Positions 14,043 through 36,908 of a stretch of 64,000 nt of DNA are shown here, one piece after another. Origin of the DNA: an uncultured delta proteobacterium (GTDB lineage Bacteria; Myxococcota_A; Polyangia; Palsa-1104); the NCBI GenBank assembly GCA_963785725.1, contig CAWAWS010000015.1, positions 192,001 through 256,000 of the forward strand, written 5' to 3'. Below the pieces are notes generated by a model. That model searched no databases. It saw only the letters and a list, made by a program, of their open reading frames with translations, and was not told the origin of the DNA. Within the stretch, counting starts at the first letter, position 1. Each line of letters starts with the position of its first letter. A program made the position numbers and the translations under genes.

Positions 14043-14055
14043 CGGCACCCGCGCT

Positions 14056-14070
14056 GAGGCTGGCAGCCAC
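14056..14070. promoter_or_regulatory. Palindromic site GAGGCTGGCAGCCAC, candidate activator-binding enhancer
   Basis: 16-nt exact match (14055-14070) to 23234-23249; about 110 bp upstream of a sigma54-like promoter. Confidence 0.6.
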
Positions 14071-14144
14071 ACGGTTGACTGGGAGAAGACACCCCCGACG
14101 ACCCTTCGCGTTTACGTAACTCGGCGTACGACAAAGGTTTGCGA

Positions 14145-14161
14145 TCGGCGCGCGTTTTGCT
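14145..14161 (+). promoter_or_regulatory. Sigma54-type -24/-12 promoter for the pilin-Hint gene
   Basis: TCGGCGCGCGTTTTGCT with GG-N10-GC spacing, followed by RBS GGAGGG (14174-14179) and TTG at 14185. Confidence 0.6.
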
Positions 14162-14184
14162 CTTGGGCAAGCCGGAGGGTTTGC

Positions 14185-16056
14185 TTGACCAGATCAACAC
14201 GCATTCGGCGCTCTTCGCGGGGTGCCTCGGGGATCGAATACGTCATCGCGCTGGTGCTCGTCTGCATGACGGTGATCGTCGGCTATCGCGCGTTCGGCAA
14301 GCGCGTCCGCTGCCGCATGGGCCTGGCCACGTCGGCGATGGCGCTCGACGGCAGCAAAGGCGAGAGCTGCGACGACGACGACGGCGCGCTCGCGCAGAAT
14401 GGTCCCTCCGGCAACGGCGGCAACAGCAACGGCCCGGCCGGACCGTCGGTCAGCGTCGAGTGCGAGCCGTGCAAGGTCAAAGGGCCCAACGGCGAGCCAG
14501 GCTGCTTCGTCGCCGGCACCAGCGTCATGACCGAGGCTGGGCCGCGTCCGATCGAGACGATCGCCGTGGGCACGACGGTGTTGACGCGCGATCAGCTCGG
14601 CGGCGAGCTGGAGTGGCGACCGGTCTTGCGCACCTTCGTTCACGACGTGCATGCGCCTCTGGTGCGCCTCACGGTCGCGACCGCCGAAGGCGTCGAGGAC
14701 ACGCTGGTGGCGACCGCCAATCATCCGCTGCAGAGCGACGAGCGCGGCTGGGTCGCCGCGGGCGAGCTGGTGCCCGGCCGCGACCACCTCCTCGATGCCG
14801 ACGGCGAGCGGCTCGCGGTGCTCGACGGCGAGACGCTGTCGAGCAACGAGCGCGTCTACAACTTCGAGGTCGAAGAGGCGCACACCTACTATGTCGGCCG
14901 GCTGCGGGTCTGGGCGCACAACGATTGCACCAAGCTGCAGCCGCCGTCGGCGGACACGAACACCGGACCGACCGTCTTGCCGCCGACGCCGGGGCCGACG
15001 CCGTCTACCACGACGACGCCGCCGCCGTCGACGACGCCGACGACGACGCCGACGCCGTCTACCACGACGACGCCGCCCCCGCCGCCTTCGTCGTCGACCG
15101 GAACGACCGGCGAACGGAACGGGTCGAATCATCAGTATCCGCCGGCGCCGGCCACCACCGGCGGCGGGTCGGGCGGCAACGGTCCCGGCGGCAGTGGCTC
15201 GGCCGGAAGCGGCGGCTCGGGTGGCGGCAAGTCGAGCCCGAGCCAGACGGCTGAGAAGTACACGGGCCTCGGTCAGAACGGCATCGACGTGCTCAACGGC
15301 GGCTTCGACGCGGCGAACAAGGGCGGCAACGTGGTCGGCCAGTCCAGCTCGATCACCCAGGCCATCGGCGGCGGCCTCGGCCTCGCGAATCAGGGGCTCG
15401 GTCTCTACAACCGGCCCAAGCCCAATCCGTTGAACCCCGGCAATCCGCCGCCGCCCATCGACAAGTGGGGCTTGGCGGGCGACGGAATCGCCAACGGCGC
15501 CGACGTCGTCGGCGGCATCAGCGGCGCCGTGGGTGGCTTCACCGGCAACTCGCAGGCGTCGACCATCGGCAGCTGGGCCAGCAGCGTCGGCAACGGCGTG
15601 TCGTCGCTCAACGGATTCCGGCAGGCGTGGAACTCGTGGAACGACGGCGAGCGGCGCGAGTTCATCAAGTATCTGATCGGCGCGACCGCCGACGGGTTCG
15701 GCTCGGCGCAGAACGCCATGCAAGCGCTCGGTCTGGCCGGCACGACGCAGTCCAACCTGCAGATCACGTCCGGCGTCCTCGCGATCATCGCGGCCGGGCT
15801 CGAGCCCGACGGCGTGCTCGCCACCTGGTTCAACAACGGCATGAACGCGTGGCGCGGCAACCAGCCGCCGCCGCCGCCTCCGCCGACGCCGAACCCGGTC
15901 GGGCCGCCGCCGATTTCGCTGACGCCGCCGGACAGCCCGCCGCCGGCGCAGCTGGGACCGCCCGATCCCAACCATCTCCAGCCGCCGCCGGTGAACAACG
16001 ACCCGGGCAACACGCCGCGGCCGCCACCGACGATCATCATCACGCCGCCCAACTAG
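14185..16056 (+). CDS. Flp-type prepilin fused to a Hint (bacterial intein-like) domain, Pro/Thr linker, Gly-rich helical domain and Pro-rich tail (about 623 aa)
   Basis: MTRSTRIRRSSRG|ASGIEYVIALVLV (basic leader, G-1, E+5, Y+6); Hint from CFVAGT (14503) through ATANHP to VYNFEVEEAHTYYVG..WAHN (14922). Confidence 0.88.
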   Translation: MTRSTRIRRSSRGASGIEYVIALVLVCMTVIVGYRAFGKRVRCRMGLATSAMALDGSKGESCDDDDGALAQNGPSGNGGNSNGPAGPSVSVECEPCKVKGPNGEPGCFVAGTSVMTEAGPRPIETIAVGTTVLTRDQLGGELEWRPVLRTFVHDVHAPLVRLTVATAEGVEDTLVATANHPLQSDERGWVAAGELVPGRDHLLDADGERLAVLDGETLSSNERVYNFEVEEAHTYYVGRLRVWAHNDCTKLQPPSADTNTGPTVLPPTPGPTPSTTTTPPPSTTPTTTPTPSTTTTPPPPPSSSTGTTGERNGSNHQYPPAPATTGGGSGGNGPGGSGSAGSGGSGGGKSSPSQTAEKYTGLGQNGIDVLNGGFDAANKGGNVVGQSSSITQAIGGGLGLANQGLGLYNRPKPNPLNPGNPPPPIDKWGLAGDGIANGADVVGGISGAVGGFTGNSQASTIGSWASSVGNGVSSLNGFRQAWNSWNDGERREFIKYLIGATADGFGSAQNAMQALGLAGTTQSNLQITSGVLAIIAAGLEPDGVLATWFNNGMNAWRGNQPPPPPPPTPNPVGPPPISLTPPDSPPPAQLGPPDPNHLQPPPVNNDPGNTPRPPPTIIITPPN

Positions 16057-16129
16057 ATCTCATGCCGGCCGGAACGCGCGCAAGGCACGCGTTGACAGTC
16101 GCACGCCTTCGCGATCACACTTGGGTCAC

Positions 16130-17482
<1,353 letters not shown>

Positions 17483-17540
17483 ATCGGCTGACGCGTCCGC
17501 CGTCGCGCGCGCCCTGCGGCGCAAGTAAACGGGTGTTTAC

Positions 17541-18999
17541 TTAGGCCAGCGGCTCGTGGCCGAACAGGCGCAACAGCCAGTGCAGCCAGCGCGGCCAGCG
17601 GCTCGGTGGCGCGCGTCGCGACAACACCGTCACCTGCGGCTCGAGCGGCCGGCTGCTGCGTGGCGCGTCGATGCGCGTCGGCTCGGCCTCGTCGTGCATC
17701 CCGATGTCGTCGAGCTTGGGCGGCGCGCCGAAGCCGAGCGGCGGCCCCGGCTCGTGCAGCGGCGACGGCTCGCCCGTGACCGTCGGCTCGTACTCGGTGC
17801 CGAGCGGCGGCGCCTCTTGAATCATGCTCAGCTCGAAGCGCATCGCGTCGTTGTCCTTCGACGGATCGATCGGGAGCGCCGGCTGCGATGATCGAGTGAT
17901 CGGCGGTCTCTTCGTCCTGCAGCAGCTGCGGCTCTTCAGTGTCGCTGTTGTACGTGCCCGAGCGGTCGGCGTCGTGGCGCTTCTCGAGCTCGTCGAGCAC
18001 GAAGCCGGTGAACGCCTCGCCGCCCGAGTGCTGCGCCGCGCGCCAGGCGTCGACCGTGAGCGCGAACAGCTCGCGCATGTAGCGCGCCAGCCCGACCGGC
18101 GACACCGGCAGCTTCTGCTCGCGCGCGAACGACTCCAGCGCCAGCTGCAGCTCTTCGGCGGTCTGAAAGCGATCTTCGACGCGCAGGCTCAAGCCCTTCA
18201 TCAAGATCGCCTCTAACGCTGGCGGATAATCGGGCTCGATGCTGCTCGGCTTGGGCACGTCGGCGTTGGCGACGGCCTTCAAGAGGCCGAGCGGGCTCTT
18301 GGGATCGAAGAGGCGGCGGCCCAACGTCAATTCCCACAAGACGATCGAGACCGAGAAGACGTCGGAGCGGCGATCGATGGCGCCACCCAAGCACTGCTCG
18401 GGCGACATATAGGGGATCTTGCCTTTGATGGTGCGGTTGCGCGTCTCGATGAGGCGGCGCGCGGCCTTGGCGATGCCGAAGTCGACGACTTTGACGCTGC
18501 CGTCGTACGTGACCGAGATGTTGTGCGGCGAGATGTCGCGATGGACGATGTAAAGCGGCTGCCCGTCGAGCGCGACCCGTTCGTGCGCATAATGCAGGCC
18601 GGCGCACATGCCGAGCCCGATCGACAGCGCGTGCTCGAGCGGGATGCGCACGTTCTTGGCCTGCGCGTGCTTCATCAGGCGCGCGACGTCTTCGCCGTGG
18701 AGGTACTCCATGGCGATGTAGTAGCCGCCGTAATCCTCACCGAAGTCGTAGGTCTGCACGATGTTGGCGTGCTGCAGCGTCGCCGCCAGCCGCGCCTCGT
18801 CGAGGAACATGGCGATGTACTTTTGATACGTCGCCAGCTGCGGCCGCACGCGCTTGATGACCACGAGCCGCTCGATGCCGACGAGACCGGTGGCGCGCGC
18901 CAAGAACAGCTCGGCCATGCCGCCTTGGGCCAACGGCCGCAGAACTTCGTACTTGCCGATACGGGCCGGCACCGTCGACTGACCGGTGGTCACCGTCAC
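17541..18999 (-). CDS. Ser/Thr protein kinase without obvious TM helix, frameshifted near 17880; acidic Thr-containing tail
   Basis: QGGMAEL, VVIK, HRDISPHN, DFG, YMSPE; tail continues in ORF 17541..17843, and the uncorrected frame would overlap the convergent activator gene. Confidence 0.88.
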
Positions 19000-19151
19000 G
19001 TCGCTCGCGCCTGCAAACTACTTTGAGTACCAACCCTAAGCATTGCTGGACACAGAATGTACTACTCGGCTTCGGGCTGCGGCAAGGGGACGCGTCTGAA
19101 AGTGCTAGCGGGAGTAGGGGTTCGTACGGATAGCGAGAAGACGCGACTGGG

Positions 19152-19385
19152 TCAGTGCGACTGGCTGCAGACGAGGCCGATGCAGCCGTCGTCGGCAGGC
19201 TTGAGCTGCGTGTTGCTCGAGCCGGTGCATTCGGACGCGTGGTCGCCCGCCGCCATCTTGCAGCGCGCGATGCGGCCGAACTCGTAGACGACCTTCAAGC
19301 CGGCGATGGCGATGAACATGACGACGATGATCCACTCGACGGCGGCGGCGCCGCGCGTGCGGGCACGGAGCTGATGACGGGCCAT
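19152..19385 (-). CDS. Small Cys-containing Flp-like minor pilin (77 aa)
   Basis: GGAGG RBS; MARHQLRARTRG|AAAVEWIIVVMFIAIAGL; four Cys in the C-terminal half. Confidence 0.8.
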   Translation of the reverse strand: MARHQLRARTRGAAAVEWIIVVMFIAIAGLKVVYEFGRIARCKMAAGDHASECTGSSNTQLKPADDGCIGLVCSQSH

Positions 19386-19387
19386 GC

Positions 19388-20266
19388 TCAACCTCCCTTG
19401 GCGATGACGGCCAGGTCGACTTTCATGGGGTCGACTTGATCGATCGAGAGGATGACGGTGCGCGCGCCCTGGTCGAAGCGCATGGTGACGCTGGCGTTGG
19501 AGCTCTTGGCGAAGCGCGGATCCTCGACCCAGTCGTGCTGCTTCATGGCGAACGCCAGCTGCGTCGCGACGCCCGAGACCGAGCCCTGTCCTTCGTAGAC
19601 GCGCGTGCTCCACGGCTTGCCCTTCTCGTCGAGCGCCAACACACGCTGCAGACCGGGGAGGCGCGGCACGTTGGGGATGTCGCCGCCGTCGACGTCGACG
19701 CCGTGCGGCGGCATCAGCTTGTCGAGCGAGAAGCGCGTGTCGGTCCACAGCGTCAAAAAGCGCGTGCCGCCGCCCGGCTCTTTGTGCCACTGGACGAAGC
19801 GGACTTGGCCGATGTCGCCGATGCGATGGCTCTTCAAGAACTTGAGGTAGCGATCTTTCAAGCTCGCCAGTGACAAGTCTTTGCCGAAGTCGAAGGCCAC
19901 GAGGCCGCCTTCGTCGTCGGTGCCGAAGGCCAGCTCGGTCGGCGGCGCCTTCTTGCCCGTCTGCGCCGCGATCTTCCGCAGCGCGTCCTGCGAGCTCGCA
20001 TATTGATCGACGTAGAAGTCTTTGACGCGCGCGCCTTGGTGCGGCGTCGAGCCCACGGCCACGTGCAAGAGCTGACCGTTGATGGCGACGGTGCGCGGCT
20101 CTTCGGTGGTGCGCTTGTCGTCGAGATAGGGCGCCATGTTCTTGCCGAAGTTCAGAAAGCCGTCGAACACCGAGCCTTCGGCGGGGCGCGGCGTCAAGAC
20201 GAGCGCGGCGATGGGCGCGACCGCCGCGATGAACGTCGTCAAACGCAAGATCGGCTTCCACCTCAC
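19388..20266 (-). CDS. Exported hypothetical protein within the pilin operon
   Basis: N-terminal hydrophobic signal; coupled to both neighbours; no recognisable family motif. Confidence 0.75.
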   Translation of the reverse strand: MRWKPILRLTTFIAAVAPIAALVLTPRPAEGSVFDGFLNFGKNMAPYLDDKRTTEEPRTVAINGQLLHVAVGSTPHQGARVKDFYVDQYASSQDALRKIAAQTGKKAPPTELAFGTDDEGGLVAFDFGKDLSLASLKDRYLKFLKSHRIGDIGQVRFVQWHKEPGGGTRFLTLWTDTRFSLDKLMPPHGVDVDGGDIPNVPRLPGLQRVLALDEKGKPWSTRVYEGQGSVSGVATQLAFAMKQHDWVEDPRFAKSSNASVTMRFDQGARTVILSIDQVDPMKVDLAVIAKGG

Positions 20267-20772
20267 GGCTGCACCTCCAGCTCTTTGAACGCGAACGGCG
20301 TCATGACGTCGAGCAGCGAGCTGTCGGGCGTCGGCAGCTTGTCATTGCAGTGCAAGAACGTGCGGCCGGCGATCTCCTTCGACGTAAAGCCGTAGCCGCC
20401 TTGCTCTTTGGCGGCGGTGCGGCCGACGCGCGCGTCGATGCTCGACGTCGCCTCGAGGAACGAGCCGCGCGCCGCTTCCGGCAAGATGAGGTACGCGGCC
20501 ATCGTCTCGTCGCCGAGCGTGCCCAAGGAGGCGAGCGTCGCCGCCGAGATCGCGCTCGGCACCATCGTCGTGTCGCACTGACCCGACGTCGCGTGCGCCC
20601 AGGCTTCGGTGCGCGACTCGTGCAGGACCTGCTGCGCCATCAAATACTGAATGCGAAAGTGGTTGATGGCGGCCCACGTGAAGATGAGCAGCGGGCAGAT
20701 GATGGCCAGCTCGACCATGGCCGTGCCGCGTTGCCGGCGATTGCGAGACCGTCGCGCGCGTGTCGTCGTCAT
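20263..20772 (-). CDS. tadE: TadE/TadF-like pseudopilin (169 aa)
   Basis: MTTTRARRSRNRRQRG|TAMVELAIICPLLIF; TAATG overlap with the upstream gene. Confidence 0.82.
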   Translation of the reverse strand: MTTTRARRSRNRRQRGTAMVELAIICPLLIFTWAAINHFRIQYLMAQQVLHESRTEAWAHATSGQCDTTMVPSAISAATLASLGTLGDETMAAYLILPEAARGSFLEATSSIDARVGRTAAKEQGGYGFTSKEIAGRTFLHCNDKLPTPDSSLLDVMTPFAFKELEVQP

Positions 20773-21932
20773 TAGTGGATCCACACTTTGTCGAGGATGG
20801 CGTTCAACGGGCCGGCGGTGAGGAACTTGAGCGGACCGAAGTCTTTGGCCTGCGACAGGATGAGGCGCGCGCGCCAGTCCATGTGCCACAGGTCTTCTTC
20901 TTTGCTGCCGCCGTAGCCGTAGACGCTCGCCTCCGACGTCGCCAGCATCCACTTGGCCGTCGCTTCCGGCGCGTCGCCGTACTGCGAAGCGGCGGCGACG
21001 AGATAGGCGCGGCGATCGTCGGGCTTGGAGTCGTCGAGGAAGCTGACGGCCTTGATGCGCGCCGTCGTCTGCCAATCGGGCGTGAGGATCTGCGGGATGA
21101 CGCCGTATTCGCCGCCGCAGGTCTCGGCCGCGCCGATGGCCAACGCCGCCGGCGACAGGCCGGCGATGATGAGCTTGCCCTCCGGCGGAATCTCCTTCGG
21201 CAGCTGCAAGAGGCCGATGGGGCCGAACGCCAAGCCGTACTCCTCTTTCTGCGGCGACGGGCCGCACACTTGATTGGGCGCGCCGTCCATCGCCGGAATC
21301 ACGGGCTTAATCGGATCGAGCACGGTGACGAGGCCCGGCAAGCGCTTGGCGTAGGCGTCATTCATGCTGACCTCTTCGGCCTCGACGGCGACGAGGATGG
21401 CGCCGGTCTTCTCGAGCTCCTTGGCGGCGTTGGCGATGGTCTTGATGCGACCGGCGAGCTCGCTGGCGGCGGCCTCGTAGCGCGCGGCGATCTCCTCGGC
21501 GATGCCCGAGTCGACGATGGCGCAGTCGGGCGCGTCGCCGATGCAGTAGGTGCCGAGCGACGCGGCCTCGAGCGTGCCGATGGCGGCGATGAAGCCGATG
21601 ATGGCGCCGCCGAGCCCGTTGAGCGTGTAGACCATGGCCATGCCGCAGGCGACGGCGAGGTTGCACCACGCGATCGAGTTCAGCGTCTTGGCCTCGGCGG
21701 CGGCGCCGGCGAAGGCGGCCGCGTCGACCGCGGCCTGGATGGTCTCCTTCTGCATGTAGCGGCGGCCGACGGCGATGACGAAGAACACCAGCGCCGAGAC
21801 GAAGAGCATGCAGACGGCGTAGAGGATAGCCACGTGGCCGCGCTCGTCGCGGTGCAAGCGCACGAACAGGCGCTTCGTGACGCGGCTGCGCAGCCGACCG
21901 AGGAATCCCGACGTCGAAGGTTTGGCGCGCAT
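20772..21932 (-). CDS. tadG: TadG-like pilus tip protein
   Basis: RDERG|HVAILYAVCMLF..IAVGR....IQAAVDAAAFAGA Tad-domain motif; no E+5, as is typical of TadG. Confidence 0.82.
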   Translation of the reverse strand: MRAKPSTSGFLGRLRSRVTKRLFVRLHRDERGHVAILYAVCMLFVSALVFFVIAVGRRYMQKETIQAAVDAAAFAGAAAEAKTLNSIAWCNLAVACGMAMVYTLNGLGGAIIGFIAAIGTLEAASLGTYCIGDAPDCAIVDSGIAEEIAARYEAAASELAGRIKTIANAAKELEKTGAILVAVEAEEVSMNDAYAKRLPGLVTVLDPIKPVIPAMDGAPNQVCGPSPQKEEYGLAFGPIGLLQLPKEIPPEGKLIIAGLSPAALAIGAAETCGGEYGVIPQILTPDWQTTARIKAVSFLDDSKPDDRRAYLVAAASQYGDAPEATAKWMLATSEASVYGYGGSKEEDLWHMDWRARLILSQAKDFGPLKFLTAGPLNAILDKVWIH

Positions 21933-21933
21933 G

Positions 21934-22533
21934 TCAGATGATCTTCCGCGGGTTGAGCTCGGGGTTCGGTCGGCCCTGTTTCGTCAGCGTGTGCTGCGCG
22001 CGCAAAATCAGATAGCGACCGTCGCCGGGCGTGATGTTCGCTTTGTGCAAATCTTCCTGCGCCGCCGACGGCAGGTCGCTGATCGGCCCGCAGAAGTAGC
22101 GGCTCGCGATGGGCACCGTGCAGTGATAGGCGTAGACGACGCGCACGGTGATCTGCGCGTCGTACTGGTCGGTGCCGAAGCGGCTCTCGGAGATGATGAC
22201 GCCGGTGTTCTTCGACGCCTCGGCCCAGCCGCCGCCCTTGCCGAACGAGTCGGCGATGGAGTTGCCTTGCGGCGCGATCGGCAAGATGGCGTAGACGGCG
22301 GCGTCGCGGATCGACTCGTTGTGCGCTTGATGGCCGTTCTCCTCTTCGTCGGGCACGACGACGATGGCGGCGCGCGCCGCGGCTTGCGCCGCGTAGTGCA
22401 CCGTCAGCTTCGCCACCGATAGCAGCGCGAGCTGAATGACGCCCGTGAAGATCATCATGAACGGGATGATGGCGATGACGAATTCGACCGCCACCATACC
22501 GCGCGGTCGTGCAGCACTACGCAGGCGTCGCAT
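21934..22533 (-). CDS. tadE: TadE-like pseudopilin
   Basis: RPRG|MVAVEFVIAIIPFMMIFTGVIQLAL....VHYAAQAAARAA. Confidence 0.88.
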   Translation of the reverse strand: MRRLRSAARPRGMVAVEFVIAIIPFMMIFTGVIQLALLSVAKLTVHYAAQAAARAAIVVVPDEEENGHQAHNESIRDAAVYAILPIAPQGNSIADSFGKGGGWAEASKNTGVIISESRFGTDQYDAQITVRVVYAYHCTVPIASRYFCGPISDLPSAAQEDLHKANITPGDGRYLILRAQHTLTKQGRPNPELNPRKII

Positions 22534-22607
22534 GGGCGGCTCCGTTCCGAAGGCGCGACGGTCTCCCGTCGCGCCTTCGTGGCGAGCGTACGGTTGCTGG
22601 CTCGTTG

Positions 22608-22826
22608 TTACTCGAGGACCTGAACCGACGTGAAGTGCTGGTCGGCCGACGAGACGGCGCCCTTGAACTTCGAGCCGAACGCCTTGAACACGGCGATGCC
22701 GGTGATGGCGATGAAGATGAGGACGATGATGTACTCGACCGAGCTCGCACCCTTCTGCTTGTTGAGCTTGCGGGCGATCTTCTTCATCGAGCGGTTCTCC
22801 ATCTTGGCGAGCGCGAGGGTCTTCAT
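22608..22826 (-). CDS. flp: Flp major pilin (72 aa)
   Basis: AGGAG RBS; ..KLNKQKG|ASSVEYIIVLIFIAITGIAVFKAFG (Flp E+5/Y+6 motif). Confidence 0.9.
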   Translation of the reverse strand: MKTLALAKMENRSMKKIARKLNKQKGASSVEYIIVLIFIAITGIAVFKAFGSKFKGAVSSADQHFTSVQVLE

Positions 22827-22852
22827 GGTCGTTTCTCCTGGTTGTGTGAAAT

Positions 22853-23032
22853 TCACGGTAAGGGCAGCTCGGTCATGAACTCGATCCGATCGTGATACCC
22901 GAGCAAGTACCGACCGAGCGGGGCCAGCGCGATGCAGGCTCCGAACGTGACCAGCGTGAGGATGATCAGCCACTCCAACATGGCCGTCCCCCTCTGCCGC
23001 TCTCGCGTTCGAATCCGACCGAGCCGTTTCAT
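22853..23032 (-). CDS. Small Flp-like minor pilin (59 aa)
   Basis: MKRLGRIRTRERQRG|TAMLEWLIILTLVTFGACIAL..; ends ELPLP. Confidence 0.78.
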   Translation of the reverse strand: MKRLGRIRTRERQRGTAMLEWLIILTLVTFGACIALAPLGRYLLGYHDRIEFMTELPLP

Positions 23033-23045
23033 GTTCCCTGGCCTT

Positions 23046-23061
23046 ATCAAGTCCGATGCCA
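23046..23061 (-). promoter_or_regulatory. Sigma54-like promoter of the pilin operon
   Basis: TGGCATCGGACTTGAT: good -24 element, TTGA instead of TTGC at -12. Confidence 0.5.
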
Positions 23062-23157
23062 AGTCGAATCTCCGCGGCTGCCGTGAAAGCGGGGTGAAAA
23101 TGGGCCCGATTTCGCCCGAATTTCGAGAGACTCGCGATGGGGTTTTTCCCCCTCGGG

Positions 23158-23266
23158 CCCGAGGCTGGCAGCCTCGGGGCCGTTTGCGGATGCGCTTGCG
23201 CGGCAAGGGCCCGGGGGATTTCCCCCTCGACCATGAGGCTGGCAGCCACCCGAGACTGCCAGCCCC
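23158..23266. promoter_or_regulatory. Three related palindromes in the divergent tad intergenic region
   Basis: CCCGAGGCTG-G-CAGCCTCGGG (23158-23178), GAGGCTGGCAGCCAC (23235-23249), GAGACTGCCAGCCCC (23252-23266). Confidence 0.65.
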
Positions 23267-23334
23267 GTGCCGGAACTCCGCGCGGGACGTGGACCTCGCG
23301 GTCGAAGCCGCATCACGGACCGCTACATAGATAG

Positions 23335-26892: not shown

Positions 26893-26912
26893 CCGTCGTC
26901 TCGAAATCGTGG

Positions 26913-27857: not shown

Positions 27858-28783
27858 CGCCTGAACGCGCAGTCCCGGCGCCGGCCGTCGTGCCTTCGGT
27901 GCCTTTCGAGGTCCACGTCGGCACCGTCGACGGACCGATCCGCTCGTACCAGTTCGACGCCGAGCGCATCCTCATCGGCCGCGCCAGCGACGTCGATCTG
28001 CGGGTCGCGCACTCGGCGATGGCGCGCCATCAGTTCATCATCGAGCGCATCCTGCTCGACGGCGGACCGGCGCGCTTCCGCATCGTCCTCGTCGGCGGCA
28101 CCAACCCGACCTATCTGAACGGGCAGCCGGCCGTCGAAGGCAGCTTGCAGCCGGGCGAGGAGATCGCCGTCGGACCGCTGCGCATCTCGGTGCACTCGCC
28201 GAAGAAGCGCAAAGCGGCGGCCAAGGCCTCGGGCGGCGTCCGCGAGAAGGTCGTGCTCATCGCCGGCATCCTCGGCATCGGCCTCGTCTGCTGGTGGATG
28301 TTCGGCGACTCGGATCCGCCGCCGCAGGTGAACCCGGCCGAAGTCGACGCGCCCCTGTTCCATTCGCTGCCGCCGTTGTCGTGCCCGACGTCGGACGCCT
28401 GCGCGGCGCGCGCTCGCGAGCAGTACGCCAAAGGCCGGCAGTACGAAGACCTCGTGCAAGGCGACATCGGCAACCTGTATCGCGCGTCGATCGCGTTCGC
28501 CTACGCGGCGCAGCTGCGGCAGGCGTCGAACCAGCCGATGCCGGAGATCGCCGACGCCACCGGGCGCGTCGATCGCGACGCGCGCAAGGCGCAAGAGATC
28601 CTCGAGGACGCGCGCTTCCAGCTGCGGCGCGCGCTCGCGGCCGGTGACGGCGACCGCACCGCGCATTCGCTGGCGGTCATTCAGCAGCTCGTGCCCGAGC
28701 CGGGCCATCCGATTCGGCTCGGCCTCGACAAGATTCGCCGCGACCTGGCCAAGGACAAAGACAAGGACAAGGACGATAAATGA
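27854..28783 (+). CDS. FHA-like domain + TM + periplasmic helical protein
   Basis: GTGA overlap with tadC; ILIGRASDVDLRV..MARHQ..GTNPTYLNG; TM VVLIAGILGIGLVCWWMF. Confidence 0.8.
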   Translation: MTPERAVPAPAVVPSVPFEVHVGTVDGPIRSYQFDAERILIGRASDVDLRVAHSAMARHQFIIERILLDGGPARFRIVLVGGTNPTYLNGQPAVEGSLQPGEEIAVGPLRISVHSPKKRKAAAKASGGVREKVVLIAGILGIGLVCWWMFGDSDPPPQVNPAEVDAPLFHSLPPLSCPTSDACAARAREQYAKGRQYEDLVQGDIGNLYRASIAFAYAAQLRQASNQPMPEIADATGRVDRDARKAQEILEDARFQLRRALAAGDGDRTAHSLAVIQQLVPEPGHPIRLGLDKIRRDLAKDKDKDKDDK

Positions 28784-29892
28784 GCCACGGTCCGCAGCGC
28801 ATCCCGGACGCGATCTTCCAGCAGACGCTGGTCGGGTTCCTAAAGCCGATCGAGAAGTTTCTGGCCGACGATCGCGTCTCGGAGGTCATGATCAACGGGG
28901 CGCGCGAGATCTACATCGAGCGCGGCGGCAAGCTGGAGCTCTCCGGCGCCGAGTTCCCGTCCGACCACGCGCTCGAGACGGCGGTGCGCAACATCGCGCA
29001 GTTCGTCGGCAAAACCGTCGACGCCGAGCGGCCGATCTTGGACGCGCGCCTGCCCGACGGCAGCCGCGTCTGCGCCGTCTTGCCGCCGGCCGCGCGGCGC
29101 GGCATCACCGTCTCCATCCGCCGCTTCCCGAAGTCGCGCCTGACGGTGCAGGATCTCGTCAACTACGGCGCCGTCTCGGAAGGCGCGCTGGCGTTCTTGA
29201 AGCTGTGCGTCGAGATGAAGCGCAACATCCTCGTCGCCGGCGGTACCGGCTCGGGCAAGACGTCGCTGTTGAACGCGCTGTCCTCGTTCGTGTCGGCGGA
29301 CGAGCGCGTCGTCGTCATCGAGGACTCGTCCGAGGTGCAGCTGCAGCAGCCGCACGCCGTCTACTTGGAAGCGCGCCCGCCCGATCACAAAGGCCAGCAC
29401 GCGGTAACCATCCGCGACCTCTTGCGGGCGACGCTGCGACTGCGCCCCGACCGCATCATCGTCGGCGAGTGTCGCGGTGGTGAGGCGCTCGACCTCGTGC
29501 AGTCGATGACCTCCGGCCACGGCGGCTCGATGTCGACCGTCCACGCGACCCATCCGCACGACACGGTTCAGCGTTTGGAGACGTTGTGCCTGATGTCGGA
29601 GGTGGAACTGCCCTTGCATGCTTTGCGCGGACAAGTGGCCTCCGCCGTCAACATGATCGTGCAGACGAACCGTCTCAACGACGGCAGCCGCAAGATCACC
29701 GACATCGTCGAGTGCCGCGGCCTCGACGCCAAAGGCTTCTACGATCTCAATCCGCTGTTCGAGTTCCGCCAGACCGGGGTCGATCCGAAGACGAGCAAGA
29801 TTCGCGGCGCGTTGGTCGCGACCCGCAACCCGGTCAGCTTCGCCGAAGAGCTGGAGGGCCACGGCGCGACGCTGCCCGAGGAGATGATGTAA
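28780..29892 (+). CDS. cpaF: Second CpaF/TadA family ATPase (no FHA)
   Basis: SEVMING, DARLPDGSRV, GGTGSGKT, IEDSSE, LRLRPDRIIVGECRGGEA, SGHGGSMSTVHA. Confidence 0.93.
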   Translation: MSHGPQRIPDAIFQQTLVGFLKPIEKFLADDRVSEVMINGAREIYIERGGKLELSGAEFPSDHALETAVRNIAQFVGKTVDAERPILDARLPDGSRVCAVLPPAARRGITVSIRRFPKSRLTVQDLVNYGAVSEGALAFLKLCVEMKRNILVAGGTGSGKTSLLNALSSFVSADERVVVIEDSSEVQLQQPHAVYLEARPPDHKGQHAVTIRDLLRATLRLRPDRIIVGECRGGEALDLVQSMTSGHGGSMSTVHATHPHDTVQRLETLCLMSEVELPLHALRGQVASAVNMIVQTNRLNDGSRKITDIVECRGLDAKGFYDLNPLFEFRQTGVDPKTSKIRGALVATRNPVSFAEELEGHGATLPEEMM

Positions 29893-31907
29893 TGCAGGAC
29901 GAAGAAGAAAAAACGTCGATGTTTCGGCAGAATAAGCCGATCGAGCCGGAGCGCACCGTGGTCGCGGCGCCGCGTCAGGTGGCGCGCCTGAAGGCCACGC
30001 TCGAAGACGGCATGCAGACGTTTTTGCCGCTCACGTCCGCGCCCGTGACGATGACGATCGGCCGCGATCCGTCGTGCGGCTGGTACCTGCAGGACTTGAG
30101 CGTCTCGCGCATTCACGCCTCCATCCGCTGGAGCGGCGTCGCCTTGTCGATCGAGGATCACGGCTCGAGCGGCGGCACGTTCGTCGCCAACCGCCAGGTG
30201 GGGACCACCCCTTGCCTGGTGAGGCCGGGCGACTCAGTCCGGGTCGGCGACGCCATCTTCGTCCTCGAGCTCACGAGCGGCATCGCGTCCAAGGATGTCG
30301 AGCAGACGCGCATGGTGCCGAACCCGTCGCCGATGTCGTACGCGGTGACGCCGGCGCCGTCGCGTCATCAGAAGCCGGTGGAGATTCCGCTCGGCACCTC
30401 GGCCGACGACGAGCGCACGGCGTTCTCGTCCGTCGCCGCGCCGCACGCGCGAGAGGGCCGTCAGGCGGCGCACGACGAAGAGGAGCGTACGGCGTTCTCG
30501 AAGGTGGCGACGCCGGCGCGCGGGCAGCGGGCGCACGCCGAGCTGCCGTCGATCGCCGCGCTCGCCGACGAGGAGAAGACGGCGTTTCAGGTCGAGCTGC
30601 CGAACGTCGTGGTGGCGTCGGACGCGACGGAGTCCGAGGTCGAGCTGCCGATCGCCGAATCGCGGCCGCAGCGCGTCGCGCCGGCCAAGCCGGTGGCGCA
30701 CGCCAAACCGGCCCCGAAGCCTGCGCCGCCGGTGCAGCAGACGCGGCCGACCACGCCGCCGAAGGCGATCCCGGCGGTCAAGCCGGCGCCGGTCAGGCCG
30801 GTCGCGCAGCCGAAGCCGGTCGCGGCCGAGCAGCAGACGACCGAGGCCGAAATTCCGCTGCCGGAAGCGGCGCCGTGGAGCAAGCCGTCGAGCGAGCAGA
30901 CGAAGACGGCGGCCGAGCTGCCCTTGCCGGGCGCACGCGCGACGCAGCCGCGCACCGAAGCCGAAGTGCGGCTGCCGCCCGAGCAGGCGCGCACGGCGAC
31001 CAAGACGCTGCCCGCCCATCAGCTGCCGACCGAGGCCGAGATTCCGCTGCCGGAAGCCAAAGCGCGCGCGCCCTTGCCGAAGACGGAGGCCCATATTCCG
31101 CTTCCCGCCGTCGCCGCCGCTTCGCGGACGGCGTCGACGGAATCGACGGTGGCGCCGGCTTCGCCGATCGCGATTCCGGTGCGCGCGCCCGATCACGAGC
31201 CGCTCGTCTACGTGCCCGAGAGCGACGTGCTGGCTCCGACGGAGGTGACGCGCAGCTGGGCCGTCGAGACGGCGCTGGCGAAGCCGAAGGAGGGCCTGTT
31301 CGGCGCGCGTCGCGGCACCGTGAAGTCGGGCATGCCGGTCAAGAAGTCGGCCGAAGGCAAGAGCGCGATCGGCAAGCTGGCGCAGCTGGCCAAGGGCGCC
31401 GCCAAAGGCGCCAAGACGACCGCCAAGACAGCGAAGCCGTCCCAGGCGGAGTCGACGGCGAAGACATGGACGTTGTCGAGCCAGCGCAAGCGCATCTTGC
31501 TGCTCGCGGGACCGGCCCTCTTGGCGATCGTCACCTCGGCGTCGGCGTGGATGCAGGCGCCGGCGGACGCGGCGAGCGAGGCCAAGCCGGCCGGCGCCAA
31601 GCACGCCAAAGCGCATCCGGCGAACGGCGCGGCGGTCGCGAACGGCGGCGCGGCCAACGGCGCGGCTGGCAATGGAGCCGGCGGCGACGGCAACGCGCAG
31701 CCCGCGGATCCGACGGCGGCGGTGGCGCCGGCCGCGGTCGCGCCCGTCGATTCGGCCGCGCGCGACGAGCTGCTCGCCGGCGCCATTCGCGCCTACAGCG
31801 ACGGCAATCGCGCCGAAGCGTTGAACATCTTCCGGCGCATGGGACCGAACGATCCGACCGGACGCGCGATGGTGCACATCATCACGCTGCAAGCCGAGGG
31901 ACAATAA
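29892..31907 (+). CDS. FHA protein with long repetitive disordered linker and C-terminal TM/periplasmic helix (about 671 aa)
   Basis: TAATG coupling; IGRDPSC..SVSRIHA..DHGSSGGTFV; repeats (D/E)ExTAF and TEAEIPLP; TM ILLLAGPALLAIV. Confidence 0.82.
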   Translation: MQDEEEKTSMFRQNKPIEPERTVVAAPRQVARLKATLEDGMQTFLPLTSAPVTMTIGRDPSCGWYLQDLSVSRIHASIRWSGVALSIEDHGSSGGTFVANRQVGTTPCLVRPGDSVRVGDAIFVLELTSGIASKDVEQTRMVPNPSPMSYAVTPAPSRHQKPVEIPLGTSADDERTAFSSVAAPHAREGRQAAHDEEERTAFSKVATPARGQRAHAELPSIAALADEEKTAFQVELPNVVVASDATESEVELPIAESRPQRVAPAKPVAHAKPAPKPAPPVQQTRPTTPPKAIPAVKPAPVRPVAQPKPVAAEQQTTEAEIPLPEAAPWSKPSSEQTKTAAELPLPGARATQPRTEAEVRLPPEQARTATKTLPAHQLPTEAEIPLPEAKARAPLPKTEAHIPLPAVAAASRTASTESTVAPASPIAIPVRAPDHEPLVYVPESDVLAPTEVTRSWAVETALAKPKEGLFGARRGTVKSGMPVKKSAEGKSAIGKLAQLAKGAAKGAKTTAKTAKPSQAESTAKTWTLSSQRKRILLLAGPALLAIVTSASAWMQAPADAASEAKPAGAKHAKAHPANGAAVANGGAANGAAGNGAGGDGNAQPADPTAAVAPAAVAPVDSAARDELLAGAIRAYSDGNRAEALNIFRRMGPNDPTGRAMVHIITLQAEGQ

Positions 31908-31909
31908 TC

Positions 31910-32626
31910 ATGATGCGTACGACGTTGCAGCTGGCGCTGTTGGCGGCGGTTTCGGCTTGGGTGGGCTGCACGCCGCCGCCGCCGCCGCGGCCGTTCGACA
32001 TCGAGGTCAAGGTCCACACCGACGAGAACGAGCCCGTCGCCGGCGCCGCGGTCAGCGCCGGCGATCGCGCGCTCGGCACCACCGACGCCAATGGCCGGCT
32101 GCTCTTGCATTTGCGCATGAACGAGGGCGCGCACGTGGCGCTCAACGTCGAGCCGCCGCAAGGCTACAAGACGATCGACGAAGCGCGGCCGCTCGTGCTG
32201 CACCGCATTTCGCGGATGGTCGACGGCGCGGCCAAGGAAGTGCCGATGGAGCACGTCGTGCGCTTCGCGCAGCTGCAGCGGCGTTATGCCGTGCTCGTCG
32301 ACGTCGGGCAGCCGAACATGGTCGTCGAGGCGTTCGGCGCGAAGCAGGCGGTGACGAATTCCAAGGGTGTGGCGTCGTTCGTTTACAACGGCACGCCCGG
32401 CGACGAGCTGGCCGTGCGCGTGAGCAGCGACGGTCATCCCGAGCTGGCGCCGAAAGTGGTGGCGAACAGCTTCGTGCTCGCGCCGCGCTCGGAGGCGTAT
32501 CTGGTGCAAGGCCGCTTCGAGCCGGCGGCGACGACGCGTTCGCGCGCGCCGCTGTCGTCGGTCGTGGTCGTGCACAAGTACGTGCATCCGAAAGCGCCGA
32601 AGAGCACCGGTCCGCATCGCCTGTAG
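31910..32626 (+). CDS. Predicted lipoprotein with beta-sandwich (carboxypeptidase-regulatory-like) domains
   Basis: MMRTTLQLALLAAVSAWVGC lipobox; EPVAGAAV..LGTTDANG. Confidence 0.75.
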   Translation: MMRTTLQLALLAAVSAWVGCTPPPPPRPFDIEVKVHTDENEPVAGAAVSAGDRALGTTDANGRLLLHLRMNEGAHVALNVEPPQGYKTIDEARPLVLHRISRMVDGAAKEVPMEHVVRFAQLQRRYAVLVDVGQPNMVVEAFGAKQAVTNSKGVASFVYNGTPGDELAVRVSSDGHPELAPKVVANSFVLAPRSEAYLVQGRFEPAATTRSRAPLSSVVVVHKYVHPKAPKSTGPHRL

Positions 32627-33204: not shown

Positions 33205-36200
33205 CTATTCGGCCTGACGGAGCGGGTGGTGAATGTGATGTGCCGTCGACGAGTGGTGCTCGAGCCGCGCCTGCGCCGGATGCGGGAACTTGTGCGGACC
33301 GGAGTGCGTGGCCGTCGCCGTGCCGCTTTCGCTGTCCATCTGCGTCGCCATCTTCTCGAGCTGTTGCCGCGCCGCCGGCGTCAGCGACGGGTTGTTGAGC
33401 GCCCGCCGCAGCTGCGCCGCCGACGCCTGGCGAATCGCGCGCTGCTGCGGCGTCAGCTCCGCCGTCGGCGCCGCCAATCCGGGCGCGCCGGCCGCGGCCG
33501 TCTGCAGCTGGCGGGCGCGGATCTTCTTGCCCTTTTTCTTGAGCTCCTCGCGCTCGGCCTGTTCGCGCGTGCCGACGTAGTTGCCGTTGCGATCGTAGAG
33601 GCCGGTGCCGTTGTAGTGGCCGGCGGAGTCGTAGCCGCCGGTGTAGACGCCGCCCGCGCTCGTGCTGCGGGCGCCCGCCACTTCGGTCGTCGGGCGCGAG
33701 GCGACGATGACGCCGTCGCGCGGCTGCAGAGCGGTGGCGGGACCGAGCGCGCCCGGACGCGTCGCGACGACGCCGTTGGGGTCGCGCGGCGTCACCTGGC
33801 CGGCGGGCAGCGTGCCGATCGTCGGGCCGTAGCTGCGGGCGCCGGGCGAGCTCGAAGCCACCGGCTGGAGCTGCGTGCCGACGATGGGGTTGCCGTAGAT
33901 CGGACGTCCCGACGGGTCGGTGCCGACGACGACGGGGCCCGGGCCGAAGCCGCCCGGCGGATAGCTGCCGGCGACGACGGGGCCCGGTCCGAGCGTGCCC
34001 GGACCATAGATGGGCGCGCCGGTCGCCGGATCGACGCCGACGACGACGGGACCCGGTCCGCCGGCGACGGGCGCGACGGGGCTGGCGTAGATGGGCGCGC
34101 CCGTCGTCGGATCGAAGCCGACGACGACCGGCGCCGTCGCGCCGTTCGGCAGCGTCGCCACCGGGTTGCTATAGATGGGCTGGCCCGTCACCGGATCGGT
34201 GCCGACGACGACGGGACCCGGACCGCCCGGCAGTGTCGCGATGGGATTGGCGTAGACCGGATTTCCCGTCGTGGGATTGAGGCCGATGACGACGGGTCCA
34301 GGCGACGTGCTGCCGGGCACGGTCGTGATCGGGTTGCCGTAGATAGGATTGCCGGTGGTCGGATCGGTGCCGATGACGACCGGTCCCGACGACGAGCCGC
34401 TGGGCAGCGTGCCGACGGGGCTGGCATAGACAGGCGCGCCGGTGGTCGGATCGGTGCCGACGACGACGGGACCGGGCGAGCCCGGTTGCGTCGCGATCGG
34501 ATCGCCGTAGACGGGCGCGCCGGTGGTCGGATCGGTGCCGATGACGCCGGGGCTGGGACCGAAGCCGCCCGTCGTCACAACGGGCGCGCCGGTGGCCGGA
34601 TCGGTGCCGACGATGACCGGGCCCGGACCGAGCGGGTTCAGCGGATCGGTGCCGCCGACGACGGGGCCGGGTCCGAGCGGGCCGAGCGGGTTGAGCGGCG
34701 TGACCGGTTCGCTGCCCGTTCCGTCGCCGCCGGCGCTGCCGGAACCACCGGCGCTGCCAGTGCCGCCCGCGCTGCCGCTGGCGGTGCCGCCCGCGCTGCC
34801 GCTGGCGGGATCGCCGGAGCCGCCGGCGTTGCCACTGCCGCCGGCACTGCCGGAGCCGCCTGCGCTGCCAGTGCCGCCGGCGCTGCCGCTGGCGGGATCG
34901 CCGGAGCCGCCCGCGTTGCCGGAACCGCCCGCGTTGCCTGCGCCGCCTGCGCTGCCAGAACCGCCTGCGGAACCGGTGCCGCCTGCGCTCGAGGGATCGC
35001 CGGTGCCGCCCGCGTTGCCGGAGCCGCCTGCGCTGCCAGTGCCGCCTGCGCTGCCGGTGCCGCCCGCGTTCGACGGATCGCCGGAGCCGCCTGCGTTGCC
35101 CGCGCCGCCGGCATTGCCGGTGCCGCCTGCGCTGCCAGTGCCACCCGCGCTGCCGCTGGCGGGGTCGCCGGTGCCGCCCGCGTTGCCGGAACCGCCTGCG
35201 TTGCCGGCGCCGCCCGCGTTGCCGCCTGCGCCGCCGCTCGCGGGATCGCCGCCGCCTGCGCCGCTGGCTCCACCGCCGCCGCCTGCGCCGCTGGCTCCAC
35301 CGCCGCCGCCGCTGCCGCCGGGATCATTCGAACCCGAGCCGGTCACGCTCGGCGGCGTCACCGTCGGGCCAGTGCTCGTCACCGTCGGGCCAGTCACCGT
35401 CGGGCCGCTGCCGGTCGCGGTCGGTCCGGTGACGACGGGGCCGGTGCCGGTGACGACGGGGCCGGTCACGGTCGGATCGGAGCCGGTCACGATCGGGCCG
35501 GTGACGACGGGGCCGGTGCCGGTCACCGTCGGGCCGGTCACGGTCGGGCCGGTGCCGGTGACGACCGGGCCGGTCACGGTCGGGCCCGTGCCGGTCGCGG
35601 TCGGGCCGGTGACGACGGGACCGGTGCCGGTGACGATCGGGCCGGTCACGGTCGGGCCGGAGCCGGTCACGGTCGGACCGGTGACGACGGGGCCGGTGCC
35701 GGTGACCGTCGGGCCGGTGACGACGGGGCCGGTGCCGGTGACGACGGGGCCGGTGACCGTCGGGCCGGTTCCGGTCGCGGTCGGGCCGGTCACGATTGGG
35801 CCTGTGCCGGTGACGACCGGGCCGGTGACGACCGGGCCGCTGCCGTTGACGGTCGGGCCGGTGACGACAGGGCCGTTGCCGTTGACGCTCGGGCCGTTGA
35901 CGGTGGGACCGCTGCCGGTGGCCGTCGGGCCGGTCACCGAGCCCGAGCCGGTGGCCGTCGGGCCGGTGACGACGGGGCCATCGCCGTTGACGGTCGGGCC
36001 GGTGACGACGGGACCGCTGCCGTTGACCGTCGGGCCGGTGACGCCGCCGCCGTTGCCGTTCACCGACGGGCCGTTGACGTTGCCACCGCCGACGTTGACA
36101 CCGCCGCCGCCGACGTCGACCGAGCCGTTGAACGAAGGACCGCTGTAAGCGCCGCCGCTGAAGTTGATGCTGCCGCCGCTGATGGTGCCGGCGCTCAAGT

Positions 36201-36753
36201 TGACGCCGCCGCCGCCGATCTGTGGGCCGTTGAAGGTGAGGCCGCCGCCGTTGACGTCGGGGCCGTTCAAGTTGATCGTCGGTCCGTTGAAGTTGGGCGT
36301 GACGTTGACCGTGCCCAGCGAGATGGACGGGCCGCTCAAGTTGATGCTGGGCCCGTTGACGCTCGGTCCCGACAAATCGATCATCGGCAGCTCGAGGCCG
36401 GGCACGTTGATCGTCTTATCGGGCAAGTTGAGGTTGGGCAGGCTCTTGTCGAACTGCGGCGAGAAGCCGGGCGAGAAGTTCCAGGTCTTGCCGTCGTAGC
36501 CGGGCACCGTGTAATCGAGGCCGGGGACGTTGATCTGCGGCCCGAACGAGATCGCGAGGCCGCCGCCGGTGTTGCCCGCGGCCTTGACCTTGTCGTACAG
36601 CGTGTTGGCCGTCGCGCCCTTCGACTTCGCGGTCGTGCCCAGCTTCTGGTAGCCCATCATCGCCGTGACGGCGACGAACACCGCGCCAATGGACCACTCG
36701 ACGGTGGCTCCGCCTCGGGTTCGTCGTTTTCTCGTGCGTGATGGTTGGCCCAT
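33205..36753 (-). CDS. Giant repetitive Flp-like prepilin fusion (1182 aa), putative surface fibre/adhesin
   Basis: MGQPSRTRKRRTRG|GATVEWSIGAVFVAVTAMMGYQKLG; then GPx(I/V)N, GP(T/V)VT, GSAGGT/GNAGG and GPVVVGTDPxTGxPxY repeat blocks; basic/His-rich C-terminus. Confidence 0.85.
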   Translation of the reverse strand: MGQPSRTRKRRTRGGATVEWSIGAVFVAVTAMMGYQKLGTTAKSKGATANTLYDKVKAAGNTGGGLAISFGPQINVPGLDYTVPGYDGKTWNFSPGFSPQFDKSLPNLNLPDKTINVPGLELPMIDLSGPSVNGPSINLSGPSISLGTVNVTPNFNGPTINLNGPDVNGGGLTFNGPQIGGGGVNLSAGTISGGSINFSGGAYSGPSFNGSVDVGGGGVNVGGGNVNGPSVNGNGGGVTGPTVNGSGPVVTGPTVNGDGPVVTGPTATGSGSVTGPTATGSGPTVNGPSVNGNGPVVTGPTVNGSGPVVTGPVVTGTGPIVTGPTATGTGPTVTGPVVTGTGPVVTGPTVTGTGPVVTGPTVTGSGPTVTGPIVTGTGPVVTGPTATGTGPTVTGPVVTGTGPTVTGPTVTGTGPVVTGPIVTGSDPTVTGPVVTGTGPVVTGPTATGSGPTVTGPTVTSTGPTVTPPSVTGSGSNDPGGSGGGGGASGAGGGGGASGAGGGDPASGGAGGNAGGAGNAGGSGNAGGTGDPASGSAGGTGSAGGTGNAGGAGNAGGSGDPSNAGGTGSAGGTGSAGGSGNAGGTGDPSSAGGTGSAGGSGSAGGAGNAGGSGNAGGSGDPASGSAGGTGSAGGSGSAGGSGNAGGSGDPASGSAGGTASGSAGGTGSAGGSGSAGGDGTGSEPVTPLNPLGPLGPGPVVGGTDPLNPLGPGPVIVGTDPATGAPVVTTGGFGPSPGVIGTDPTTGAPVYGDPIATQPGSPGPVVVGTDPTTGAPVYASPVGTLPSGSSSGPVVIGTDPTTGNPIYGNPITTVPGSTSPGPVVIGLNPTTGNPVYANPIATLPGGPGPVVVGTDPVTGQPIYSNPVATLPNGATAPVVVGFDPTTGAPIYASPVAPVAGGPGPVVVGVDPATGAPIYGPGTLGPGPVVAGSYPPGGFGPGPVVVGTDPSGRPIYGNPIVGTQLQPVASSSPGARSYGPTIGTLPAGQVTPRDPNGVVATRPGALGPATALQPRDGVIVASRPTTEVAGARSTSAGGVYTGGYDSAGHYNGTGLYDRNGNYVGTREQAEREELKKKGKKIRARQLQTAAAGAPGLAAPTAELTPQQRAIRQASAAQLRRALNNPSLTPAARQQLEKMATQMDSESGTATATHSGPHKFPHPAQARLEHHSSTAHHIHHPLRQAE

Positions 36754-36765
36754 GTAAGCGCTGAC

Positions 36766-36781
36766 AGCACGGCCCGTGCCA
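36766..36781 (-). promoter_or_regulatory. Sigma54 -24/-12 promoter of the giant pilin gene
   Basis: TGGCACGGGCCGTGCT, a near-consensus match to TGGCACG-N4-TTGCW. Confidence 0.75.
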
Positions 36782-36879
36782 GGCGTTCAGACGCTCCAGA
36801 CCCACACCCGCCGCGGGCTGCAACGCGTTGGAGAAGCTCAGTGGATGCGCGGCAGGGGGGAGAAGTCCGCCCCAACGAT

Positions 36880-36908
36880 GAGGCTGTGCGCCTCAGGCGG
36901 CGAGCCAC
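36880..36908. promoter_or_regulatory. Tandem GAGGC-N5-GCC(T/A)C-type palindromes
   Basis: GAGGCTGTGCGCCTC (36880-36894) and CAGGCGGCGAGCCAC (36894-36908). Confidence 0.5.

Follow-up and report, generated by a model that had tools for sequence, protein, structure and literature searches.

Does a palindrome shared by the promoters of a pilus gene cluster mark a single regulon, which protein would read it, and how far does its reach extend beyond the cluster? The question is raised by a 64,000-nucleotide (nt) stretch of DNA from an uncultured delta proteobacterium (Myxococcota_A, Polyangia; GenBank assembly GCA_963785725.1, contig CAWAWS010000015.1, positions 192,001 to 256,000), hereafter the window, which by its sequence carries a Tad cluster of the Kil type. 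A first-pass annotation of the window had proposed that palindromes and sigma54-type −24/−12 elements ahead of four pilus transcription units (promoters P1 to P4) define a regulon. We regard it as highly probable that this sigma54 regulon is real, statistically strong, conserved, and larger than that annotation saw. The explanation we favor is, taken as a whole, probable: a 17-bp dyad is the enhancer, at the four Tad-cluster promoters and at five dispersed genes for Flp-type pilins fused to a Hint domain (Flp-Hint genes), of one activator, likely the FHA-domain activator encoded at 16130.

Activator dimers contact sigma54 polymerase by looping. According to excerpts of PMC7910581, sigma54 activators bind repeats approximately 80 to 150 bp upstream, a range that includes the window sites, at −102 to −133. 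The elements found at the four promoters are the following (dyads and auxiliary sites without strand; L061, L062, and L063 are metagenomic loci described below):

14055 to 14071, P1 main 17-bp dyad: centre at −109; top score in the genome, 24.5; the paralogue on contig C20 is also spaced at −109
14080 to 14097, P1 auxiliary arm-matching site: offset from the main dyad by +25 bp, as at the C20 paralogue
14146 to 14161, plus strand, P1 sigma54 −24/−12 box: canonical GG and GC; inferred +1 at about 14172
23046 to 23061, minus strand, P2 sigma54-like box: TGGCAT...TTGAT, with GA at −12; preserved in L061 and L063; inferred +1 at about 23035, which leaves 3 nt to the ATG
23138 to 23155, P2 auxiliary site: 21 bp nearer the promoter than the main dyad
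23160 to 23176, P2 main dyad: centre at −133; kept in L061
23212 to 23267, P3 three-site array (23212, 23234, and 23251, that is −22, 0, and +17): centres at −119 and −102
23335 to 23350, plus strand, P3 sigma54-like box: TGGCCC...TTGTA, with GT at −12; inferred +1 at about 23361; TGGCCCCGCTCTTGTA in L062 and L063
36766 to 36781, minus strand, P4 sigma54 box: TGGCACG...GTGCT, with canonical GC; inferred +1 at about 36755
36879 to 36895, P4 main dyad: perfect arms TGAGGC/GCCTCA; centre at −132

The palindromic sites and boxes reported by the first-pass annotation all lie where it placed them, and its site centres relative to the inferred +1 (−109, −133, −119/−102, and −132) were reproduced. The 16-mer that it matched between 14055–14070 and 23234–23249 is exact and occurs only these two times in the genome (8.9 Mb, 67.9% GC). 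The palindrome itself stood, with its unit corrected to a 17-bp dyad (consensus YGAGGCTGSCAGCCTCR, derived from 13 sites), but the loose pattern GAGGC-N5-GCC[TA]C did not hold up as a rare motif: because it has 135 genome matches, rarity lies instead in the CTG-N-CAG core, and the 13-mer GAGGCTGGCAGCC occurs three times genome-wide, always within the window.

To score sites, a scan matrix was trained on five window sites only and then run over the genome. Six of the eight matrix matches scoring 9 or more in the window are sites that the first-pass annotation had listed. When excluded from the training set, the P1 site and the two main sites of P2 and P3 still place within the best 2 to 15 positions of the genome, and the P4 site within 108. 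One entry of the earlier list, 36894 (here 36893), is not counted because it is weak (score 11.6, or 8.8 when left out, with 457 genome positions as good and a rank within 457) and overlaps the main P4 site at 36879 by 3 bp. The 23251 site is also weak when left out (7.7; rank within 1248) but adjoins the main P3 site; its palindrome is better in a 97% relative, and its +17 position is preserved in L063. Three auxiliary arm-matching sites, at 14080, 23138, and 23212, had been missed.

The dyad is often arrayed in tandem and lies 67 to 172 bp upstream of the −24/−12 boxes. A second arm-matching site is found at +17, ±21–22, or +25 bp in 7 of the 15 genome sites displayed, against a background of 0.4% per 45-nt intergenic window; this statistic is only descriptive because the relaxed pattern was picked after the sites were seen. 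Helical phasing of the site-to-promoter distances (p = 0.84 for 9 pilin/Tad promoters, 0.015 for 16, and 0.0025 for 19; best period 11.7 to 11.85, not 10.5) is weak and post hoc, and neither it nor the presence of sites resembling those of integration host factor (two mismatches) in 5 of 11 spacers, a count made without a background control, is used as evidence here.

Could such palindromes simply be repeats, terminator hairpins after stop codons, or chance products of GC-rich DNA? Five sites do lie 9 to 25 nt after the stop codon of the preceding gene, and the many matches to the loose pattern would fit chance. The motif is nevertheless far from equally frequent in random DNA: outside the window, 10 of the 12 matrix matches scoring 16 or more are intergenic, compared with a background of 19% (p = 3e-6). 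Nor does it behave as a genome-wide repetitive extragenic palindrome, which would have tens to hundreds of copies, shared flanks, and a foldable stem-loop: at two or fewer mismatches there are 11 copies, 10 of them intergenic, with unrelated flanks, and the conserved centre has a 1-nt gap with non-compensatory mismatches. Termination is further contradicted by 4 of 10 training sites and C39:528607, which sit between divergent genes, where nothing terminates. Together with the out-of-sample matches described next, these features leave this alternative with hardly any credence.

The strongest support for a regulon comes from outside the window. Independently of the matrix scan, a tblastn search identified five more genes that join a Flp-type N-terminus and a Hint domain to an unrelated C-terminus (loci L046, L037, L048, L049, and L047), listed here by contig and position with the centre of the dyad site:

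C15:39529, minus strand, Flp-Hint gene, site at −73
C20:216244, minus strand, Flp-Hint gene, site at −109
C22:39662, minus strand, Flp-Hint gene, site at −67
C7:899007, minus strand, Flp-Hint gene, site at −74
C4:160349, plus strand, Flp-Hint gene, site at −172

The window-trained matrix places a site upstream of all five, with scores of 11.7 to 19.4, whereas such a score within 300 nt upstream is found for 48 of 7577 called genes (our own gene calls; Fisher p = 8e-12), and all five have a sigma54-like box just before the start codon. The proposed regulon thus predicted 5 of 5 genes out of sample, and it is kept in other species (see below). Including the one in the window, the six Flp-Hint genes align over pilin and Hint, where the CFVAGT and HN ends are invariant, and differ in their C-termini.

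Across the nine target promoters, a −24/−12 box is present at 9 of 9, compared with 471 of 4848 background genes (9.7%; p = 8e-10), and every box has GG at −25/−24 with correct spacing to the −12 element. The first-pass claim of sigma54 boxes at the four window promoters holds outright at P1 and P4, which have the canonical GC at −12, and with reservation at P2 and P3, whose −12 elements (TTGAT and TTGTA) are non-canonical; both variants are kept in relatives. Three of the nine boxes depart from GC in all (GA at P2, GT at P3 and C22), and this, along with the near-leaderless P2 and P4 transcripts and an rpoN gene that is present in the genome but split over two frames in the assembly, could be taken to mean that the dyad binds a regulator unrelated to sigma54, a repressor or a sigma70-type factor, the boxes being incidental or weak. 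We consider this very improbable, given the enrichment of the boxes, their letter-for-letter preservation in the distant species L062/L063 and their presence at Tad promoters that use other dyads; moreover, no sigma70-like promoter passed a scan of 13900 to 23500.

The P2 and P4 mRNAs would be nearly leaderless because the predicted starts, 23035 (ATG side 23032) and 36755 (36753), lie 2 to 3 nt before the start codon, an arrangement also predicted for cpaB of L011, L012, and L015. The Flp gene downstream in the P2 unit has a clear ribosome-binding site. In contigs from RNA-library sequencing runs of close relatives, parts of 22608 to 23017 (small pilin and Flp) are covered in 8 of 8 runs, and none extends beyond 23017. 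These ends, just inside 23035, agree with the predicted P2 start as a weak hint, the runs having been found with that very stretch; a "probably DNA" run also ended at 22996, so the hint has no valid control.

Sites and boxes are conserved where the Tad cluster is close enough for comparison, which holds for three of the seven cpaB loci found in a metagenome scan. L061 (CpaB 97% identical) keeps all sites and both boxes. L063 (65%) keeps a central dyad flanked at −21 and +17 as well as the P3 and P2 boxes, with spacings of −132 to P2 and −96 to P3; the remaining DNA cannot be aligned without large gaps. In L062 (64%), the dyad (at −107) and the P3 box are retained. Among GTDB relatives with CpaB of at most 53%, the dyad is absent upstream of cpaB (16 loci) and of the small pilin (4 loci), and in 14 family relatives the CTG-N-CAG core appears in 0 of 76 loose-pattern matches. 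These relatives share the promoter design with other dyads, which are candidate Tad enhancers. At type-B Tad loci, all three genomes have TGGATC-N6-GATCCA at −75/−76 of a canonical box, and the pilin promoters of type-A loci carry paired 18-bp dyads with similar TGRGG arms at about −74/−109 or −86/−119 (4 of 4):

L001:4653/4685, L003:9451/9483, L004:3497/3529, and L005:981/1014, type-A dyad pairs, 32 to 33 bp apart
L011:2066, L012:14509, L015:4764, L028:151, and L035:12849, type-B dyads TGGATC-N6-GATCCA

In the genome studied here, 18 of 41 type-A-like matches are intergenic (p = 2e-4). Elsewhere among the relatives, a Flp-type pilin enlarged by a long C-terminal extension (L012:1600–2640, minus strand) ends the type-B Tad locus of genome G004 just before its FHA activator, and a Hint protein with a weak ParB_N-like C-terminus (L045:2262–3926) is encoded near a Tad locus and a sigma54 activator in a genome of the same order, where the 17-bp dyad is absent. 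A Hint gene near a Tad locus in genome G022 has no dyad site.

Which protein, then, would read the dyad? The genes around the four promoters are as follows:

14185 to 16056, plus strand, giant pilin 1: Flp-type N-terminus, PT-HINT domain, Pro/Thr/Gly linker, and unassigned hydrophobic C-terminus; probable TTG start
16130 to 17482, plus strand, FHA-AAA+-helix-turn-helix (HTH) sigma54 activator: GAFTGA intact; recognition helix ERTYLRRLLKKY
17419 to 18999, minus strand, Ser/Thr kinase: convergent with the activator; candidate input; frame apparently shifted in the C-terminal part
19152 to 23032, minus strand, P2 transcription unit: small pilin (22853 to 23032), Flp pilin (22608 to 22826), TadE, Tad/TadG-like, TadE-like, conserved unknown (19388 to 20266), and small pilin (19152 to 19385)
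23401 to 32626, plus strand, P3 transcription unit: CpaB, FHA-CpaF, TadB, TadC, FHA protein, second CpaF, FHA protein, and lipoprotein
33205 to 36753, minus strand, giant pilin 2: Flp-type N-terminus and long Gly/Pro/Thr repeats; lacks a Hint domain and any Pfam match

The 16130 activator contains PF00158 (E = 5e-65), PF02954 (HTH_8), and PF00498 (FHA), and it is the likely binder of the dyad, as the first-pass annotation had suggested. This assignment, which we grade as likely, rests on position, co-occurrence across lineages, and precedent. Adjacency to the cluster is by itself weak support because the genome encodes at least 56 called activators. In a quick tree, the 16130 activator forms a clade of its own with the metagenomic P0001, P0002, P0004, and P0005 (SH-aLRT, the Shimodaira–Hasegawa-like approximate likelihood ratio test, 100), and its recognition helix is preserved in the two closest metagenomic orthologues (94% and 77% in the C-terminal part). 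Its best match among 33 activator loci compared is 50%, and no orthologue was found in five relatives searched with its C-terminus (best 40 to 45%). For 7 of the other 17 FHA activators, the 14 family relatives hold orthologues at 71 to 96%, yet these genomes are without the strict motif. Genomes G001 and G004 pair another FHA activator beside the Tad genes (helix GRAYLHRLIRKY) with another dyad, TGGATC-N6-GATCCA. The neighbourhood of a kinase gene and an FHA activator recurs in relatives.

Several observations weigh against this reading. There are 84 PF00158 matches in the genome, and 18 of the called activators have an FHA domain; 10 of the 17 other FHA activators stay candidates for binding, the comparison having covered only top matches to the window activator. 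Type-A Tad loci have sigma54-like boxes and the related 18-bp dyad with no activator in the flanks examined, so that Tad promoters can be served in trans. The contigs of L062 and L063, which bear the motif, do not extend far enough to reveal an activator, and the FHA domain of the window activator has GK where we take GR to be the conserved pair. Neither a site nor a box was found upstream of the 16130 gene. Four of the five dispersed genes, at −67, −73, −74, and −172, fall outside the 80–150-bp range of PMC7910581. As a separate observation, TTGACA followed 18 nt later by CACACT, at 16094 to 16122, may serve the activator gene as a sigma70-type promoter of its own; the promoter scan did not retain it.

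The sigma54 regulon could accordingly be real and its binder another activator encoded elsewhere, with 16130 serving other promoters or only assisting. Besides the number of activators, the type-A loci, and the missing autoregulatory site, this account can draw on several paralogues that share a similar xRxYLxRL helix and on the TGRGG arms common to the 17- and 18-bp dyads. It is weakened by the paralogues with the most similar helices (C7:751482 and C14:342363), whose 84 to 92% orthologues occur in relatives without the strict motif, and by the type-B loci, which differ in both adjacent activator and dyad. We judge it unlikely, albeit the most serious of the alternatives.

If the 16130 activator is indeed the binder, established mechanics of bacterial enhancer-binding proteins suggest that its HTH dimers would occupy the arrayed dyads and assemble an AAA+ ring, which would loop to sigma54-RNA polymerase at −24/−12 and open the promoter. 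The FHA domain and the neighbouring kinase gene hint at the switch: phospho-threonine read by the FHA domain may turn the activator on, possibly after phosphorylation by the 17419–18999 kinase. The inner-membrane machine would then be induced jointly with the pilins, both major and minor, and with seven large pilins, six of which combine Hint with a variable C-terminus. The Flp-Hint proteins would be processed and built into the pilus. The secretin and prepilin peptidase, whose genes are located elsewhere, would stand outside the regulon.

The secretin (432 aa), a TPR lipoprotein, and the A24 peptidase are located on contig C4 (L036:11101–13616), away from the Tad cluster and adjoining a matrixin-like gene, and the cpaB of the window is the only one found in the genome. 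The secretin/prepilin-peptidase operon has no dyad and no box upstream. In several relatives, comparable divergent coding DNA lies ahead of cpaB, an indication that the Tad cluster was split in this genome. Some genes are split over two frames, namely a kinase-TPR gene (11513 to 14042), the cluster kinase, rpoN (C20:359480–359960), and several activators; these are probably indel errors of assembly.

The regulon probably reaches beyond pilins, since dyad and box also precede two membrane-protein paralogues. Among 13 further intergenic dyad matches, 6 have a box within 35 to 150 nt, at −66 to −87 (background 7.8%, p = 2e-4). Two of these precede the paralogous polytopic membrane proteins L039:6931–8187 and L040:5263–6504 (both minus strand), and in either case a strong sigma54 box has the dyad at −74. 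Neither protein has a Pfam or NCBIfam match, nor was a PDB match found for L039; that they are pilin-modifying enzymes is a guess. Strong intergenic sites at C26:140, C24:29740, C16:20168, C3:206864, C3:137764, C44:4970, and C16:343338 mark candidate members, which encode lipoproteins, peptidases, or unknown proteins; three of the seven have a box at −86/−87.

The first-pass annotation had read shared control as independent evidence that giant pilins and machine form one system. Co-regulation is supported, and the six unlinked pilin-Hint genes are supported as pilus cargo because the dyad ties them to the machine without recourse to protein similarity. Assembly into one pilus is not thereby proven because the dyad also precedes the two non-pilin membrane-protein paralogues and is missing from the secretin operon. 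A cargo role of the Flp-Hint C-termini is itself uncertain. Papain fold toxin 1 (PF15644, E = 3e-5, above the cut-off) is matched by one of the four intact C-termini (C22), and the other three have no informative Pfam match; an AlphaFold prediction of the C20 C-terminus reached a predicted local distance difference test score of only 34, and in the C15 and C7 copies the reading frame shifts beyond the Hint domain. In our own gene calls, none of the six genes is followed by a co-oriented small immunity-like gene; a convergent gene lies downstream in five cases and the activator in one. A search of 400 genomes of the class with the pilin N-terminus returned weak matches in 13 only, mostly plain Flp pilins. 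We tentatively entertain the idea that the Kil-like Tad pilus is a toxin-delivery device into which six interchangeable Flp-Hint-effector fusions are built, their cargo freed by Hint self-cleavage at the target cell, and that a kinase-FHA-sigma54 switch induces this arsenal together with the machine.

For the regulation and cargo of Kil/Tad predation pili, the enhancer, its promoters, and the candidate activator-kinase pair offer a testable circuit. If the toxin-delivery idea is true, the enhancer provides a handle for finding Tad cargo genome-wide, and the Flp-Hint proteins would explain, through the pilin itself, how such pili intoxicate prey. The circuit may also supply a binding site for an FHA-type sigma54 activator; no such motif was found in the literature searched (few subscription papers), in which we likewise found no kil-like enhancer or Flp-Hint family. 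Myxobacterial FHA-domain enhancer-binding proteins (Nla18 and Mx4885), with FHA-AAA+-HTH architecture and encoded beside Ser/Thr kinase genes, were reportedly described by Jelsbak and colleagues in 2005. They are reported to share both this architecture and the neighbouring kinase genes with the 16130 activator. The half-site of Nla28, CT(C/G)CG(C/G)AG, is arranged as a tandem repeat in excerpts of PMC7910581, unlike the 17-bp dyad.

Sigma54 control of Tad pili was already known from DVU2114 of Desulfovibrio vulgaris, which the consulted sections of PMC3333781 present as a sigma54-dependent activator that targets the neighbouring Tad/Cpa-type pilin locus and a distant pilus operon through mostly palindromic sites with 4- to 6-bp arms. 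A sigma54 activator beside a Tad locus with distant pilus targets is likewise found here, with the difference that binding was shown for DVU2114 and is predicted for the 16130 activator. DVU2114 is a two-component response regulator, whereas the input here is an FHA domain adjoining a Ser/Thr kinase, and among the predicted targets are six genes for pilin-Hint fusions, spread over six loci, unlike in the DVU2114 regulon.

The machine invites comparison with Kil of Myxococcus xanthus, which, in the parts of PMC8460266, PMC12075869, and PMC12428579 covered, shares an FHA-fused CpaF, several FHA proteins, CpaB, TadB/C, a Flp major pilin, small adapter-like pilins, TadE/G-like tip pilins, and the placement of tip or pilin genes in separate clusters. 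One CpaF ATPase is described for Kil (PMC8460266), as against the two in the P3 unit, a number also found in Tad loci of relatives, and unlike in Kil, the secretin and peptidase lie on another contig. Those same parts name no transcriptional activator or enhancer for kil and no counterpart of the genes with Flp, Hint, and a variable C-terminus ("Hint" has no occurrences in the text of PMC12075869), and effectors of Kil/Tad are called hypothetical (PMC12428579 and PMC12075869). Flp-pilin-fused toxin domains are mentioned in one sentence of PMC12605009. The six genes resemble PT-HINT polymorphic toxins in having a trafficking N-terminus, a Hint domain, and unrelated C-termini, and differ from them in lacking immunity-like neighbours (0 of 6) and, for three of the four intact C-termini, an informative Pfam match. 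Within the literature searched, two features are new relative to these systems: the input through an FHA domain and a kinase, and the connection to pilin-Hint cargo genes dispersed over the genome.

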